This document shows, piece by piece, positions 2,249 to 57,526 of a stretch of 64,000 nt of DNA (its first letter is position 1; every line of letters starts with the position of its first letter). Under the pieces are notes generated by a model. The model saw nothing but the letters and a program-made list of their open reading frames with translations, was not told the origin of the DNA and ran no database searches. The DNA comes from Escherichia coli (GTDB lineage Bacteria; Pseudomonadota; Gammaproteobacteria; Enterobacterales; Enterobacteriaceae), in the NCBI RefSeq assembly GCF_003018255.1, contig NZ_CP027440.1, one strand, 5' to 3'. The position numbers were made by a program, and so were the translations under genes.

Positions 2249-4081
2249 TCAAAACGGAAACAGCATCGGGATCATCACCACACAAACCGCCATCACGATA
2301 ATGGTGAACGGTACCCCCAACTTCACAAAGTCACTGAAGCTGTAATTTCCCGGACCTAAAACCAGTGTGTTAACAGGTGAAGAAACCGGCGTCATAAAGG
2401 CGGCGGATGCTGCCATCGCCACGACCATCGCGAATGGGTAAGGCGACACCCCCATCGTTTTAGCAGCAGCCAGCGCAATCGGAGCCATCAACACCGCCGT
2501 CGCGGTATTAGAAATAAATAGCCCAATAACCGCCGACAAGACAAACAAACAACCCAGCATCATATGTGGCCCGTAACCGCCGCCAATGTCCATCAGCCCT
2601 TTCACCGCCAGCGCAACACCTCCCGTTTTCTGTAATGCCACAGCAAACGGCATCATCCCAACGATCAAAATAATGCTCGGCCAGTGTATGGATTTATAGG
2701 CGCTTTCAGCATCGATACAGCGGAATTTCCCCATCAGCAGGCAGGCGATGATAGCGGCAACAGGATTAGGAATTTCATCGGTCAGCATTAACGCCACCAT
2801 TAGCACCAGACAGAAAATGGCATGGGGTGCCTGACTGTGCGCGGGCGATGCTTCACTCACCTCTTCCGGTAAGTTCAGCGCTACGAAGTCGCGGCCCTGT
2901 TTGGCCAGCATACCGATCAGTTTCCAGTTACCCACAACCAGGATGATATCGCCCAGCAGCAGAGGCTCATCCGCCAGCGAACCTTCCAGCGCCACGCCAT
3001 TGCGCTTTAGCCCCACTACATTCAATCCGTAGCGGGTACGAAAACCAATTTCGCGCACCGATTTACCAATAAGTTCTGACTCAGGAATTAATGAAATCTC
3101 TGCCATGCCCACATCAAGGGCCTGGTCAGAAAAATACTCGCCGCGCAGTACCATCGGCTCCAGCAATTGCTCACTACAAAATTGCCGGAGATCGACATCA
3201 GCCGCAGACATATCAATAAGCAAAACGTCACGCGCGCGAAATTCAGAAACCCCATTAACGTTCACGATAACGCGACGAAAACGCCGCCAGCGTTCAACAC
3301 CGATGACGTTAGCACCATAACGTTCACGTAATTTGAGATCGTCCAGTCGTTGACCAATCATTGGCGATCCGGGGCGAATAGCCAGACGTCGCGCACGCCC
3401 GGTCAGTCGATATTCACGGATAAGATCGCGAAAGGTTCGGCGCGTCCAGCCTTCGCGTTGTGGGGTCTGGGTATCCCCTTTCAGCATGAAACGCATCACT
3501 AACATATACAAAATACCCAGCACCAGCACGACCAGGCCAATAGGTGTTACGCTAAAGAAACTGAAGCCGTGATAGCCTTCACGCAGCAATTCACTGTTGA
3601 CTACCAGGTTCGGCGGCGTCGCCACCAGCGTCATCATGCCGCTTATCAGCCCGGCAAAACTTAACGGCATCATCAGACGCGACGGCGACGTTTGCATACG
3701 CATGGCAACGCTTAACACCACGGGAATAAAGATAGCGACAACGCCGGTTGAACTCATAAACGCGCCAAGCCCCGCGACGGTCAGCATCAACAAAACCAAC
3801 ATTTTGATTTCACTGTTGCCCGCCACTTTGACCAGCCATGTCCCCATTACAGTGGCAACACCGGTACGGACCAAACCATCGCCAATAATGAACAAGGCGG
3901 CAATCAGGACAACGTTAGGATCGGAAAAGCCGGAAAATACTTCGGGGACCGTCAGCGTTCCGCTTAATGCAAACGCGACAATAACAAACAAAGCGACCGC
4001 ATCCATACGCACTCTGCCCGTCGCAAACAAGACGATGGCAACGGCCAGTAATGAAAGAACCCAAATCAATTCACCGTTCAC
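2249..4081 (-). CDS. yfbS: Putative transporter YfbS
   Basis: 610-aa ORF, many hydrophobic segments with a central soluble region; recognised as YfbS; synteny. Confidence 0.88.
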
Positions 4082-16281: not shown

Positions 16282-16477
16282 GGCGTTCCGTCACCCCTCA
16301 AATTTAAGATGACGCGACAATAACCACGATTAATACCCAATGCAGCAGGCAGTTTTTATCTTTGGACAGCGAATTCAGAACTATTTTTAGCGGACTGCAA
16401 CTTTTACATTTCAGCGGAAGCTGACTCGCAAATTCCCCTTGAAAATACTCCGGCAGCGTTAGCCACCGGAGGGGGAA

Positions 16478-17251
16478 TTATTTCAGCGATCCCTTAAGGA
16501 ACTGTTGCAGACGAGGGCTTTGCGGGTTACCAAATAACTGTTCTGGCGCGCCCTCTTCTTCTATTTTCCCCTGATGGAGGAAAATGACGTGAGTAGAAAC
16601 ATGGCGAGCAAAGCCCATTTCGTGAGTCACTACCACCATGGTTTTCCCCTCTTCTGCCAGTTGCTGCATAATACGTAACACTTCGCCTACCAGTTCAGGA
16701 TCGAGCGCCGAGGTAGGTTCATCAAATAGTAAAACTTCCGGTTCCATTGCCAGCGCCCTTGCGATGGAAACACGCTGTTGCTGACCACCGGACAGGTGCA
16801 CCGGGTATTTCCCCTGCGCACGTTCGTCTATCCCGACTTTTGCCAGATATTTCACCGCCCGCTCGCGCGCTTCCTGCTTGCTCAGGCCCAACACCTGAAT
16901 CGGCGCTTCCATGACGTTTTCCAGCACCGTCATATGGCTCCAGAGATTGAAGTGCTGGAATACCATCGTCAGGCGTGTGCGCAATAAGCGCAGCTGATTT
17001 TTATCGGCGACTTTGAGTTGACCGTCTTTATCGCGCACCAGATTGATCGTCTGGCCATTGACCACGATCGATCCTTCGCTCGGTTTTTCGAGGAAGTTAA
17101 TGCAGCGCAGAAAGGTACTTTTCCCCGATCCCGACGATCCGATGATGCTTATGACATCTCCGGCATTCGCTTGCAGTGAGACCCCTTTCAGCACTTCGTG
17201 TTCGCCGTAGCGTTTGTGCAAATCGATAACGTTTAATTTATTCTCGGACAT
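16478..17251 (-). CDS. hisP: Histidine/lysine/arginine/ornithine ABC transporter ATP-binding protein
   Basis: 257-aa ORF; Walker [10 protein letters not shown]; LSGGQQQR signature. Confidence 0.95.
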
Positions 17252-17258
17252 CGTATTC

Positions 17259-17975
17259 TCAGTGCGTTGAAGAAGGTTTCACATGCTGCAACCAGCGTTT
17301 TTCCGCTCTGCGAAAGAGGCTGATCAGGACATAAGAGATGATTAAATAGAGCACCGCGGCAATGCCGAAGGCGGTAAAAGGTTGATACGTGGCGGCGTTA
17401 ATATCGCGGGCAATTTTCAGCAGATCCGGCACCGTGGCCGTAAACGCCAGCGCAGTAGAGTGCAGCATCAGGATCACTTCGTTGCTGTATGCCGGTAACG
17501 CAATACGCAGCGCAGAAGGCAAAATAATGCAGCGATACATTTTAAAGGTCGAGAAGCCATAGGCTCTGGCGGCTTCAATTTCCCCATGCGGCACTGAACG
17601 GATTGCCCCGGCAAAAATCTCGGTAGTGTAAGCGCAGGTGTTAAGCGTCAGCGCCAGCACGGTACAGTTCAGACCACTGCGAAAAAAGGCGTTAAGGAAC
17701 TCGGTTCCCTTAACAATCTCCAGCGTGTACATGCCGGAATAAAACACCAGCAACTGAACATACAGCGGCGTACCGCGAAAAATATAGGTAAATAACCAGA
17801 TTGGAAACTGGATGTATTTATTACTTGAGACGCGACCAATCGCCAGAAACAGCGCCAGAACTCCGCCTATCACTACCGACAAAATCAGCAGCCACAGGGT
17901 GATTGCCACGCCAGTAAAGCGATAACCGTCAGTCCACAGCAGTGGTTTCCAGTATTCATGTAAGATTTCGATCAC
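17259..17975 (-). CDS. hisM: Histidine ABC transporter permease
   Basis: 238-aa ORF; 4-bp overlap with hisQ. Confidence 0.93.
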
Positions 17976-18658
17976 AGGTCAGACCTCTTCACACCCACGG
18001 AGTAGCGGCGCTCAAGGAACAGCAGCACACCATTGGAAACAGTGGTAAAAACCAGGTAAATCACGCCACAGACGATGGCGAAATAGAACGGTTCCCAGGT
18101 ACTTTTGCCTGCCAGCTGAGTGGCTTTGACCACATCTTCCAGGCCGAGTAACGAAACGAGTGCGGTAGATTTGAGGATCACCTGCCAGTTGTTGCCAATG
18201 CCTGGCAGGGCGTAACGCATCATCGCCGGAAACATGATCCGCCGAAACACTTGCCCACGAGTAAAACCGAACGCCGTCGCCGCCTCTATATGTCCTTTCG
18301 GCACTGCCATAAAAGCACCACGGAACGTTTCGGTAAAATAAGCACCGTAGATAAAACCGAGAGTGATAATACCTGCGACCATCGGATCAATATCAATCTG
18401 CCCGACGCCCATCGCCTCCGTCACCGTGTTTAGCGCAATCTGCAAACCGTAGAAAATCAGCAGCATCAACACCAAGTCCGGCACGCCTCGAATCAGCGTG
18501 GTGTACCCTTCGAAAATCAGCCCCGAAAGCCGATTTTGCGAGAGCTTACCGCCAGCGCCAATTAAACCGATAATTACAGCGAGCACTACAGAGCTGATAG
18601 CCAGCTCCAGCGTGACGAGCGCACCCTGTAAAATAACACCTGAAAACCCATACAACAT
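17972..18658 (-). CDS. hisQ: Histidine ABC transporter permease
   Basis: 228-aa ORF. Confidence 0.93.
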   Translation of the reverse strand: MLYGFSGVILQGALVTLELAISSVVLAVIIGLIGAGGKLSQNRLSGLIFEGYTTLIRGVPDLVLMLLIFYGLQIALNTVTEAMGVGQIDIDPMVAGIITLGFIYGAYFTETFRGAFMAVPKGHIEAATAFGFTRGQVFRRIMFPAMMRYALPGIGNNWQVILKSTALVSLLGLEDVVKATQLAGKSTWEPFYFAIVCGVIYLVFTTVSNGVLLFLERRYSVGVKRSDL

Positions 18659-18699
18659 GCTGCCTGTCCTGTCGTGTGTGGTGAATTACCGCCTCTTGT

Positions 18700-18723
18700 C
18701 TCCCTCCGGTTACCCGAAGGGAG
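18700..18723 (-). other. Intercistronic stem-loop between hisJ and hisQ
   Basis: imperfect hairpin ctccctccggttacccgaagggag read in sequence; location matches the classical hisJ-hisQ intergenic REP-type stem-loop. Confidence 0.45.
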
Positions 18724-18747
18724 CGGACCTTCTTTCACCGATGGCGA

Positions 18748-19530
18748 TTAACCACCATAAACATCAAAATCGAAGTACTTTTTCGCTAATTTCTCGTAAG
18801 TACCGTCAGCGCGCATTTCGGCAAAGGCTTTGTTCAGTGCCTCGCGCAGTTCGTTATCTTCTTTACGCAGGCCCATGCCGGTCCCTACGCCAAACAGTTT
18901 TTCATCTTTAACAGACGGACCACCGAATTTGTAATCTTTACCGACGGGTTGTTTGAGGAAACCTTCGCTGGCAGCGACCTCATCCTGGAACGCGGCATCA
19001 ATACGTCCGGCAGTCAGGTCAGAATAAATGTTGTCCTGCCCCTGATAAGAAACGATTTCAATGCCTTTTGGTGCCCAATGTTCGTTACCGAACGTCTCCT
19101 GGGTGGTGCCCTGCAATACGCCTACCCGTTTGCCTTTCAGCGACTCGACTGTCGGCTGAATGTCGGAATTTTTCGCCACCACCAGACGAGAATCGGCAGC
19201 GTACAGTTTGTCGGTGAAGGCAATTTCTTGCTGACGTTTTTCCGTAATGGAAAGCGATGACATGATGGCGTCAATCTTCTTCGCTTTTAAGGACGGGATT
19301 AACGCATCCAGTGGGTTTTCGACAAACGTACATTGCGTATTGATGCGTTTGCACAACTCCTTCGCCAGATCGATATCGAAGCCAACCAGTTCGCCTTGTG
19401 AATTTTTTGATTCAAATGGCGCATAGGTCGGATCGGTACCGATGCGGATGTTTTGCGGAATCGCAGCAAACGCAGCAGTTGCGCTGGAGAAGGCCAGAAC
19501 CAGAGAGAGCGATAGCACCAGTTTTTTCAT
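18748..19530 (-). CDS. hisJ: Histidine-binding periplasmic protein
   Basis: 260-aa ORF with signal peptide; tandem paralog of argT. Confidence 0.95.
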
Positions 19531-19750
19531 AATGTCCTCAACTGACAGTCTTTTTATAGGGAATATTTACAGGTTTGTTACACTTATCGTGCCATAAAAT
19601 TGACCATCAAGGCAAAATATCCCGCCCCGTTAGACGTATTATTTTTCATTAAAAATGCTTAAGTATGCATTTCAATGCACCACGATAGTGCAACAAACCT
19701 GGCGTGCACCATGATGATCATTCCATCAGGTACAGTTTCCCTGCGACGTA

Positions 19751-20533
19751 TCAGTCACCGTAGACATTAAAGTCGAAATACTTTTTCGCCATCTTGTCGT
19801 AGGTACCGTCCTGACGCAGCTCGCCAAGCGCCTTATTAAACGCCGCCGTCAGTTCAGCATCATCTTTACGTAGCCCTACACCGGTACCGTCACCGAAGTA
19901 TTTTTTGTCTTTCACTGATGAGCCAGCAAAAGCGAACTCTTTACCGGCTGGTTGCTTGAGGAATCCTTCACTGGCAGCAACTTCATCTTGTAACGCAGCA
20001 TCCAGACGTCCTGCAGCCAGATCGGAATAAACCAAATCCTGGTTGGCATAGGCCACCACATCCACGCCTTTGCTACGCCAGGTCTCGTTAGCGTATGCTT
20101 CCTGGGTTGATCCCTGCAGCACACCCACATGTTTACCTTTCAGTGAATCCAGCGTTGGCTGAATCGGTGAACCTTTGGCGGCAATCAAACGAGAATCTGC
20201 GGCGTACAACTTGTCGGAGAAAGCAATCTCCTGCTGACGTTTATCGGTAATGGAGAGCGACGAAATAATGGCGTCGATTTTTTTCGCTTTTAGTGAGGGG
20301 ATCAGCGCGTCAAAGTCACTGGCAACCCAGGTACATTTCACCTGCATCCGTTTGCACATCTCGTTACCGAGATCGATATCAAAGCCAACAAAGTCACCTT
20401 TGGCATCTTTCGATGAGAACGGCGCATAGGTGGTATCGGTTCCGATACGTACCGTCTCCGGTAGCGCCGCATAGCTGGAAGCCGCTGCGGAGAGACCGAC
20501 TAACAAAGACAGAGCGAGAATCGACTTCTTCAT
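19751..20533 (-). CDS. argT: Lysine/arginine/ornithine-binding periplasmic protein
   Basis: 260-aa ORF with signal peptide. Confidence 0.95.
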
Positions 20534-20600
20534 ACATAACCCTCAAGTGAAAATGGCTTTTTTATGTTGTGTATTGTGTTGTGTGTTTGCAGGCTCTTTC

Positions 20601-20617
20601 ATGCAGGTCTTATGCCA
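20601..20617 (-). promoter_or_regulatory. Candidate sigma-54 (-24/-12) promoter for argT
   Basis: minus-strand tGGcataagacctGCat: GG and GC separated by 10 nt, ~70 nt upstream of argT start; argT is Ntr-regulated. Confidence 0.45.
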
Positions 20618-20798
20618 TCTTTACGACAACAGTAACATTCAACGTTAAATATGTTAATAAGACGTTGCATTATTGTCCTAAAGTTGAAGATAGCAGGTAT
20701 GGCGGTTGAATCGCAGCGTTTCGATTCATCGAAAGGAACAAAATGTCGAGGATTTGATCGCGGTTGCAAAATTGCCCTGAAACAGGGCAACAATGAGG

Positions 20799-21368
20799 TT
20801 ATGCGCCCTGCCAGCGGGCAAAGAGATCTTCAGGAAGGGTTATCGCAAACTGGTCAAGAACACGATTAACCGTCTGATTTATCACATCATCAAGGGATTG
20901 TGGGCGATGATAAAACGCCGGAACGGGAGGCATAATCACCGCACCGATTTCTGCCGCCTGAGTCATTAAACGCAGATGGCCTAAGTGCAGTGGCGTTTCA
21001 CGCACGCAGAGCACCAACGGGCGACGCTCTTTCAGCACCACATCTGCCGCACGGGTCAGTAAGCCATCAGTATAGCTATGGACAATGCCGGACAGGGTTT
21101 TGATTGAACAGGGTAAAATCACCATCCCCAACGTCTGGAAAGAACCGGAAGAAATGCTGGCAGCAATATCGCGCGCATCGTGTGTCACATCAGCTAACGC
21201 CTGCACTTCGCGCAGGGAAAAATCCGTTTCGAGGGATAAGGTCTGGCGCGCTGCCTGGCTCATTACCAGATGCGTTTCGATATCTGTGACATCGCGCAGA
21301 ACCTGTAATAAACGCACGCCATAAATCGCGCCGCTGGCACCGCTGATGCCTACAATGAGTCGTTTCAT
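20799..21368 (-). CDS. ubiX: Flavin prenyltransferase UbiX
   Basis: 189-aa ORF; MKRLIVGISGASGAIYG. Confidence 0.94.
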   Translation of the reverse strand: MKRLIVGISGASGAIYGVRLLQVLRDVTDIETHLVMSQAARQTLSLETDFSLREVQALADVTHDARDIAASISSGSFQTLGMVILPCSIKTLSGIVHSYTDGLLTRAADVVLKERRPLVLCVRETPLHLGHLRLMTQAAEIGAVIMPPVPAFYHRPQSLDDVINQTVNRVLDQFAITLPEDLFARWQGA

Positions 21369-21462
21369 AAATAGTTGCCCTGTCAGACTTGCAGGCAGAC
21401 TTTGCAGGATTTCGACGGGAGTTGCAAGTCAGGGTGCCAGACCGGCACCCTGAGCGAAGGCA

Positions 21463-22981
21463 TCATCCTTCGTTATGCATTTCGAGATTTTCCACTTCGT
21501 TCTGACGTTGCACTGCTTTGGCGTCGTCATTACGTAAAGTATCGAGGAAATCGAGGTAGCCCTGATCAACGTCTTTGGTGACGTAGACGCCGTTGAATAC
21601 CGAGCATTCAAACTGCTGGATATCCGGGTTTTCAGCGCGAACGGCTTCGATCAGATCGTTCAGATCCTGGAAAATCAACCCGTCAGCACCGATGATCTGG
21701 CGAATTTCATCTACTTCGCGACCGTGAGCGATCAGTTCCGTGGCGCTCGGCATATCGATACCGTAAACGTTCGGGAAGCGAATTTCCGGTGCCGCAGAAG
21801 CGAGGTACACTTTCTTCGCTCCGGCTTCGCGTGCCATCTCGATAATCTGCTCAGAAGTGGTGCCACGGACAATGGAGTCGTCGACCAGCAAGACGTTTTT
21901 ATCGCGGAACTCGGCGCGGTTGGCGTTCAGTTTACGGCGCACGGACTTACGACGCAGCTGCTGGCCCGGCATGATGAAGGTGCGGCCAACATAGCGGTTT
22001 TTAACGAAGCCCTGGCGGTACGGTTTGCCCAGAATACGAGCAATTTCCAGCGCGATATCACACGAGGTTTCCGGAATAGGGATCACCACGTCGATATCCA
22101 GATCTTCCCATTCGCGGGCAATTTTCTCGCCCAGTTTGGTGCCCATATTCACGCGCGCGCTGTAAACGGAAATTTTGTCGATGAACGAGTCCGGGCGGGC
22201 AAAGTATACATACTCAAACAGGCACGGATTGCTGACCGGATTGTCAGCACATTGACGGGTAAACAACTGCCCTTCTTCAGTGATGTAAATCGCTTCGCCC
22301 GGCGCGACGTCACGCAGGAAATCAAAGCCCAGCGTATCGAGCGCAACGCTTTCGGAAGCGACCATATATTCTGTACGGTTCTCGTCAATATCACGTTTTC
22401 CCAGTACCAACGGACGAATACCGTTTGGATCGCGGAAAGCAACCATACCGTGGCCGATGATCATCGCCACACAGGCATACGCGCCGCGGATTAAGCGGTT
22501 TGTAGCAGCGATGGCGGCGAAAATGTTGTCGGCTTCCAGCGGATAGTGGCGGAAGTTGTCCAGTTCGCTGGCAAAGATATTAAGCAGAATTTCCGAGTCG
22601 GAAGTGGTGTTGATGTGGCGGCGTTTTTCTTCAAACAGTTTTTTTACGCAACTCGTGAGCGTTGGTCAGATTGCCGTTGTGGGCAAGCGTAATGCCATAC
22701 GGGGAGTTAACGTAAAACGGCTGCGCTTCAGAGGCGCTGGAGCTGCCAGCCGTAGGGTAACGCACATGACCAATGCCCATATTGCCCTGCAAACGCTGCA
22801 TATGGCGAGCTTCAAATACATCGCTCACCAGCCCGTTCGCTTTACGCAAACGGAAGCAGTTATTGGCATCTATGGTGATGATGCCGGCGGCATCCTGACC
22901 GCGATGCTGAAGCACCGTTAAGGCATCATAAATCGACTGGTTAACCGGCATAACACCGGCGATACCGACAATACCGCACAT
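21463..22981 (-). pseudogene. purF: Amidophosphoribosyltransferase gene purF, disrupted by +1 frameshift in a homopolymer run
   Basis: N-terminal ORF 22631..22981 ends ..[10 protein letters not shown]; the native frame ([19 protein letters not shown]..) resumes one base out of frame and runs to 21463; plus-strand T7 run at 22639-22645. Confidence 0.8.
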
Positions 22982-57451: not shown

Positions 57452-57526
57452 GTCCTCTTAGTTAAATGGATATAACGAGCCCCTCCTAAGGGCTAATTGC
57501 AGGTTCGATTCCTGCAGGGGACACCA
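57452..57526 (+). tRNA. argW: tRNA-Arg (anticodon CCU)
   Basis: 75-nt sequence read directly, matches argW as recalled; anticodon loop cuCCUaa; ends ..ACACCA. Confidence 0.95.

Follow-up and report, generated by a model that had tools for sequence, protein, structure and literature searches.

Background

The argT-hisJQMP locus of enterobacteria has been studied for a long time and is known in detail, and it serves as an example of gene duplication followed by specialisation, in which two binding proteins feed a single ABC translocator. The lysine/arginine/ornithine-binding protein ArgT takes lysine, arginine and ornithine as ligands and HisJ takes histidine and, weakly, arginine; the substrate ranges overlap, arginine being bound by both. 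The two proteins share about 70% of their residues, and each associates with HisQMP2, docking on HisQM and stimulating the ATPase HisP (PMC6640053). The two genes differ in their reported transcription. For argT, expression depends on sigma-54 and NtrC. Transcription of hisJQMP starts at a sigma-70 promoter, described in exponentially growing cells, and is controlled by ArgR, which occupies two boxes in the control region of hisJ (PMC6640053). Binding of the RpoN holoenzyme has been located between ubiX and argT (PMC8743547). The same logic is found in artPIQM-artJ of E. coli, where two paralogous family-3 arginine-binding proteins that differ in specificity, ArtJ and ArtI, share one membrane complex (PMC6640053). 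A literature search on the argT/hisJ duplication returned nothing directly relevant.

The pair is described here as it occurs in a 64-kb stretch of E. coli DNA, called the window hereafter, and is compared with its counterparts in other E. coli genomes and in other Enterobacteriaceae.

Gene content and identity of the locus

The listing of open reading frames between 16500 and 24000 places hisJ and argT on the minus strand as two intact genes of 260 codons, separated by a gap of 220 bp (Table 1). The hisJ product matched the NCBIfam HisJ equivalog NF011965 over residues 1-260 with 599.4 bits (cut-off 459), and reached 434.7 bits against the ArgT model NF011586, under the cut-off of 440. The argT product matched NF011586 over residues 1-260 with 582.8 bits (cut-off 440), and reached 423.8 bits against the HisJ model, under the cut-off of 459. 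Each protein clears its own model only and scores higher with it than with that of the sister protein. The Pfam domain PF00497 (SBP_bac_3) was found in both at 143.6 and 140.9 bits (cut-off 26.4). The closest solved structures were those of the histidine-binding protein for HisJ (1hpb/1hsl, E = 5.8e-155) and those of the LAO protein for ArgT (1laf/2lao/1lst, E about 2e-147). Downstream of hisJ and in the same orientation follow hisQ, hisM and hisP, whose products carry BPD_transp_1, BPD_transp_1 and ABC_tran domains, that is, two permeases and one ATPase. The RefSeq annotation of the best-matching E. coli (200164, 99.3% identical in the region) gives ubiX-argT-hisJ-hisQ-hisM-hisP with the same order and lengths.

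Table 1. Positions of genes and candidate control elements of the argT-hisJQMP region in the window
Feature	Position	Strand	Basis and remarks
hisP, ATP-binding subunit	16478..17251	-	ORF; Pfam ABC_tran; annotated hisP in E. coli 200164
hisM, permease subunit	17259..17975	-	ORF; Pfam BPD_transp_1; annotated hisM in E. coli 200164
hisQ, permease subunit of the shared transporter	17972..18658	-	ORF; Pfam BPD_transp_1; annotated hisQ in E. coli 200164
Hairpin in the hisJ-hisQ spacer, 10 bp, GUAA loop	18700..18723	-	Spacer fold z = -3.5; no U-tract after the hairpin
hisJ, histidine-binding periplasmic protein, 260-aa precursor	18748..19530	-	ORF; NF011965; SBP_bac_3; PDB 1hpb/1hsl; distal copy, first gene of hisJQMP
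hisJ signal-peptide codons 1-22	19465..19530	-	Solved mature chains begin at precursor residue 23
Promoter block upstream of hisJ, TGGCACGATAAGTGTA	19579..19594	-	Match to a sigma-54 -24/-12-like pattern, 2 mismatches
Candidate ArgR operator	19633..19671	-	Two 18-bp ARG-box-like sequences (19654-19671, 19633-19650), 14/18 consensus each, canonical 3-bp spacing
Putative NtrC-type palindrome, TGCACTATCGTGGTGCA	19676..19692	-	Fits TGCACYNNNNNGGTGCA without mismatch; the one such site in the 64 kb
argT, lysine/arginine/ornithine-binding periplasmic protein (LAO), 260-aa precursor	19751..20533	-	ORF; NF011586; SBP_bac_3; PDB 1laf/2lao/1lst; proximal, upstream copy
argT signal-peptide codons 1-22	20468..20533	-	Solved mature LAO chains begin at precursor residue 23
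argT sigma-54 promoter, -24/-12 elements TGGCATAAGACCTGCA	20602..20617	-	Pattern match
ubiX intrinsic terminator, 9-bp GC-rich stem then UUUU	20767..20791	-	Fold -15.5 kcal/mol, z = -3.2; hairpin conserved across genera

The locus is, with a probability of about 97%, the classical enterobacterial argT-hisJQMP. The original prediction had named the two genes hisJ and argT, described them as tandem paralogs encoding two 260-aa proteins and called the arrangement a known feature of this locus. The names agree with the equivalogs, the structure matches and the RefSeq annotation; the open reading frames and a BLASTP comparison of the products bear out the tandem pair with its limits, and the annotation and the literature confirm that the arrangement was known (PMC6640053).

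When 5,426 complete E. coli genomes were searched with the 5-kb stretch from 16400 to 21400, 5,425 matched; identity is 99.3% in the best case and 95-99% in most. None of the 5,426 genomes holds an identical copy of the region, the best match over the two genes being 99.7%, and the DNA may come from an E. coli or Shigella lineage that has been sampled less. Two places on plasmids match the 5-kb region at 60-80% identity. In an Rfam scan of the whole window, none of the RNA families fell within the locus or close to it; the sole match at the gathering threshold is a tRNA at 57452-57523 (+).

The neighbouring purF gene (21463-22981, minus strand) has 1,519 nt in the window and 1,518 nt in E. coli 200164. 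An extra A at gene position 337 (A7 versus A6, in a homopolymer at about 22639-22645) causes a frameshift that leaves two ORFs, of 116 and 335 aa, in place of the full gene. It is the only indel in the 11 kb aligned to E. coli 200164, alongside 75 substitutions. Either purF is a real pseudogene, which would make the strain auxotrophic for purines, or the extra A is a sequencing error in the homopolymer.

Divergence of the two proteins

BLASTP aligned HisJ and ArgT without gaps, with 174 of 259 residues identical (67%), 84% positives and E = 5e-133, a similarity well above chance expectation. The ungapped nucleotide alignment of the genes contains 539 identical positions out of 783 (68.8%), and identity by codon position is 76%, 86% and 45%, a pattern that points to old, selectively constrained paralogs. 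The long stretches of identical residues noted originally are present only to a modest degree, since the longest identical peptide blocks measure 15 aa and 14 aa. At the DNA level both blocks are broken by synonymous differences. The blocks reflect constraints shared by the two proteins, imposed by the fold, by the binding of the ligand alpha-amino and carboxylate groups and by docking on HisQM, and not a recent exchange.

The signal peptides had been predicted to be near-identical. They were defined as residues 1-22 in both proteins because the crystallised mature chains begin at precursor residue 23. Within them 10 of 22 amino acids (45%) and 36 of 66 nucleotides are identical, versus 164 of 238 amino acids (69%) in the mature proteins, so that the signal peptides, far from being near-identical, are the least conserved part of the pair.

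Leu52 and Thr120 in HisJ and Phe52 and Ser120 in LAO are ligand contacts in the structures 1HSL and 1LST. The window proteins carry L52/T120 in HisJ and F52/S120 in ArgT (mature numbering). The contacts common to HisJ and LAO, presumably D11, Y14, S69, S70, S72, R77, L117, T121, Q122 and D161, are identical in both window proteins. When 82 HisJ and 79 ArgT sequences were compared, the two clades differed at 20 alignment columns in the residue to which each is fixed (95% or more), including those of mature positions 52 (L/F) and 120 (T/S). The pocket residues of the window proteins, as read from these alignments, would fit the specificities of HisJ and LAO, respectively.

An old tandem duplication of a gene for a family-3 solute-binding protein has given rise to two specialised receptors, ArgT (LAO) and HisJ. 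Each has a signal peptide of 22 residues for export and binds its ligands in the periplasm, and both deliver them to a common membrane translocator, HisQMP2, whose genes lie directly downstream; the ligand affinities and the sharing of the translocator are carried over from the literature. The copies have diverged in two ways, at ligand-contact residues (mature positions 52 and 120) and in their regulation.

Control regions of argT and hisJ

The intrinsic terminator of ubiX would isolate argT from upstream transcription. Sigma-54 promoters were recognised by the GG-N10-GC motif (TGGCAC-N5-TTGCW), suitably placed upstream of the gene and conserved, and such a motif is found before argT. Each of the 16 aligned genera carries its TGGCA and TGCA elements unchanged. 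The gene has a conserved sigma-54 promoter of its own, in agreement with the dependence on sigma-54/NtrC and the RpoN binding known from the literature.

The 220-bp spacer between argT and hisJ contains several conserved elements. One is the TGGCACGATAA block, within which ATGGCACGATAA is kept in 14 of the 16 genera aligned. The -24 element of this block, TGGCAC, is present and conserved, and the -12 element reads GT and not GC. The -12 GC is also missing in six of the aligned genera, and it is present in Citrobacter, Salmonella, Kluyvera, Kosakonia and others. As to the exact role of the block, we infer that it may overlap the sigma-70 promoter reported for hisJ. A generic sigma-70 consensus scan of the region gave no match on the minus strand, and the reported promoter was not placed by it. 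Farther from hisJ, weak ARG-box matches suggest a candidate ArgR operator, and a block of the form TGCATA-TTAAGC...ATGCAAAA is conserved across the genera aligned. The putative NtrC site, of the pattern TGCACYN5GGTGCA, lies about 80 bp upstream of the TGGCAC block, and its GGTGCA half-site is conserved across the aligned genera. With the NtrC-type palindrome, the ARG-box-like sites and the promoter block, hisJ would have a control region of its own in the spacer, NtrC binding there being predicted and ArgR binding taken from the literature.

It could be argued that argT and hisJQMP form one operon transcribed from the argT promoter only, the spacer being an untranslated linker. The transcription unit is indeed listed as 'argT-hisJQMP' (PMC8743547). 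Furthermore, no convincing intrinsic terminator was found after argT in the window genome, where the spacer holds only a weak 5-bp stem and its fold is not significantly different from that of shuffles (z = -1.3), so that read-through from argT into hisJQMP is plausible and is regarded as possible. However, a single operon with one promoter is improbable, for the spacer contains blocks that are conserved in 16 genera (the ARG-box-like region, the TGGCAC block and the GGTGCA half-sites) as well as the one NtrC-type palindrome of the window that is free of mismatches, clear hairpin terminators follow argT in several other genera, and a separate, ArgR-regulated promoter of hisJ has been reported (PMC6640053).

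Separate control of hisJ, possibly supplemented by read-through, is the preferred reading, and it leaves room for a more speculative and rather doubtful proposal concerning Escherichia. In this lineage the hisJ promoter might descend from a sigma-54 promoter whose -12 GC has disappeared, the -24 TGGCAC and the NtrC palindrome being retained; nitrogen control of hisJQMP would then be exerted through read-through from the argT sigma-54 promoter, together with the sigma-70/ArgR promoter. If this were true, the control of one of the two paralogs would have been rewired in this lineage alone.

At the 3' side of hisJ, the hairpin of the hisJ-hisQ spacer has a counterpart in every genus examined, either a GC-rich hairpin or a REP-like element at the same position. 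By analogy with the REP element of the Salmonella spacer, it is probably a structure that protects the mRNA 3' end or attenuates expression, raising the expression ratio of hisJ to hisQMP.

Recombination between the paralogs

It had been proposed that homologous recombination might act on the pair. If the genes actively recombined or converted each other, homogenised stretches, hybrid genes or deletions should be seen, and the arrangement of hisJ and argT as same-strand direct repeats with a period of 1,003 bp and 69% nucleotide identity would lend itself to such events. The minimal efficient processing segment for RecA-dependent recombination in E. coli is a perfectly matched stretch of roughly 20-30 bp. 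Pairwise nucleotide alignment of the two genes gave a longest perfectly identical tract of 11 nt, occurring four times (gene positions 103, 154, 292 and 745). The pair falls short of the RecA minimum and is therefore a poor substrate for homologous recombination. In addition, when codon columns were shuffled, the longest tract averaged 16 ± 3.4 nt, and a maximum of 11 nt or less had a probability of 0.05. The observed tract lies at the low edge of this distribution; hence there is no excess of long identical tracts.

The genomes give the same picture. Among 5,426 complete E. coli genomes searched, 5,425 match the 1,786-bp two-gene unit, each of them over at least 80% of its length, and no collapsed or hybrid argT/hisJ allele was found among these 5,425. 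The unit has no match in one of the 5,426 genomes and is found at two places in one genome. Across 79 genomes, the median identity of HisJ and ArgT proteins is 69.2% within a genome and 69.2% between genomes, and the nucleotide identity of argT and hisJ is 70.0% within versus 69.4% between genomes; the equality of the within-genome and between-genome values implies that the copies have not been converted by each other. Longest tracts of 29-49 nt do occur in a few other genomes, the maximum within a genome being the 49 nt of Enterobacter asburiae (L044), and could be taken as traces of conversion. Nevertheless, long identical tracts are equally frequent between and within genomes, and since up to 50 nt are shared by genes of different genomes, the 49-nt tract is not evidence of conversion. 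Gene conversion and concerted evolution were thus ruled out by the equal identities, the equal tract frequencies and the codon-column shuffling.

It is accordingly very improbable that argT and hisJ constitute an active recombination or conversion pair. The two genes are too diverged for ready recombination. It would be wrong to mark the pair as a recombination hotspot or to call its signal peptides near-identical.

Age of the duplication and conservation of both copies

The locus was surveyed in one genome per species, which gave 80 loci, all from Enterobacteriaceae and belonging to about 30 genera, including Salmonella, Citrobacter, Klebsiella, Enterobacter, Kluyvera, Buttiauxella, Cedecea and Mangrovibacter. 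Two loci with a missing upstream flank (L040 and L042) were left out, and 78 of the 80 were informative. In all 78, argT lies directly upstream of hisJ, with hisQ next, and ubiX was detected upstream in all of them except L034 and L060.

In Leclercia adecarboxylata NCTC13032 (L016, counted among the 78) argT seemed at first to be missing, but the gene is present and frameshifted. Between positions 3108 and 6556 of this locus, the coding sequences of ubiX, argT and hisQ are all interrupted by changes of reading frame. The frameshifts are most likely indel errors of the assembly and not gene loss.

Comparison of the 82 HisJ and 79 ArgT sequences showed identities of at least 78% among HisJ orthologs and at least 76% among ArgT orthologs, and of at most 74.6% for every HisJ-ArgT pair. 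The lowest ortholog identities are higher than the highest paralog identity, and synonymous sites are saturated, as is characteristic of out-paralogs. For hisJ and argT of the window, the Nei-Gojobori method gave pS = 0.69 (dS about 1.85, saturated) and dN = 0.23, with dN/dS about 0.12. The saturation of synonymous sites, the higher identity of orthologs than of paralogs and the conserved gene order show that the duplication predates the radiation of the sampled Enterobacteriaceae, the copies having evolved independently under purifying selection. The duplication had been called ancient from the outset, and this description holds.

The orthologs of E. coli and Salmonella differ in their degree of conservation. 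Between the window genome and Salmonella (L013/L014), dN is 0.012 for hisJ versus 0.043 for argT, and dS is similar and saturated; HisJ is markedly more conserved than ArgT in this comparison.

That one copy is redundant or decaying to a pseudogene, as the overlap in substrate range with arginine bound by both (PMC6640053) might suggest, can practically be dismissed, given that neither gene is truncated, that both proteins have an intact signal peptide and all the ligand-contact residues named above, that the dN/dS of the pair and the low E. coli-Salmonella dN of each gene indicate constraint, and that both copies are kept in the 78 informative loci and in 5,425 E. coli genomes, with intact frames in every locus but that of Leclercia, whose frameshifts look like assembly errors.

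Comparison with known systems

The locus of the window closely resembles its described counterparts. It has the same gene order, ubiX-argT-hisJ-hisQ-hisM-hisP, as argT-hisJQMP of E. coli K-12 and Salmonella Typhimurium, and the same lengths of 260, 260, 228, 238 and 257 aa for the five transport proteins. The sequence of the argT sigma-54 promoter is conserved between the window and the known locus. No functional difference was found between the window locus and those of E. coli K-12 and Salmonella Typhimurium. The region is 97-99.7% identical in DNA to that of E. coli genomes. The spacer between hisJ and hisQ does differ. A REP element is present in the hisJ-hisQ spacer of Salmonella, and in the loci surveyed Salmonella (L013) and Citrobacter (L009) carry long REP-like palindromic elements (GCCTGATGGCGCT...ATCAGGCCTAC) at this place, whereas the window spacer (18659-18747) has, like most other genera, a single short hairpin. 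The 67% identity measured here between HisJ and ArgT matches the value of about 70% given in the literature (PMC6640053).

The resemblance to the second E. coli system is one of design. The window proteins match the ArtJ/ArtI models with E = 1e-52 to 3e-56, but at about 178-191 bits versus cut-offs of 510-522, which assigns them to a different orthologous group. Moreover, artI and artJ, unlike argT and hisJ, do not lie next to each other in tandem, and they are regulated differently.
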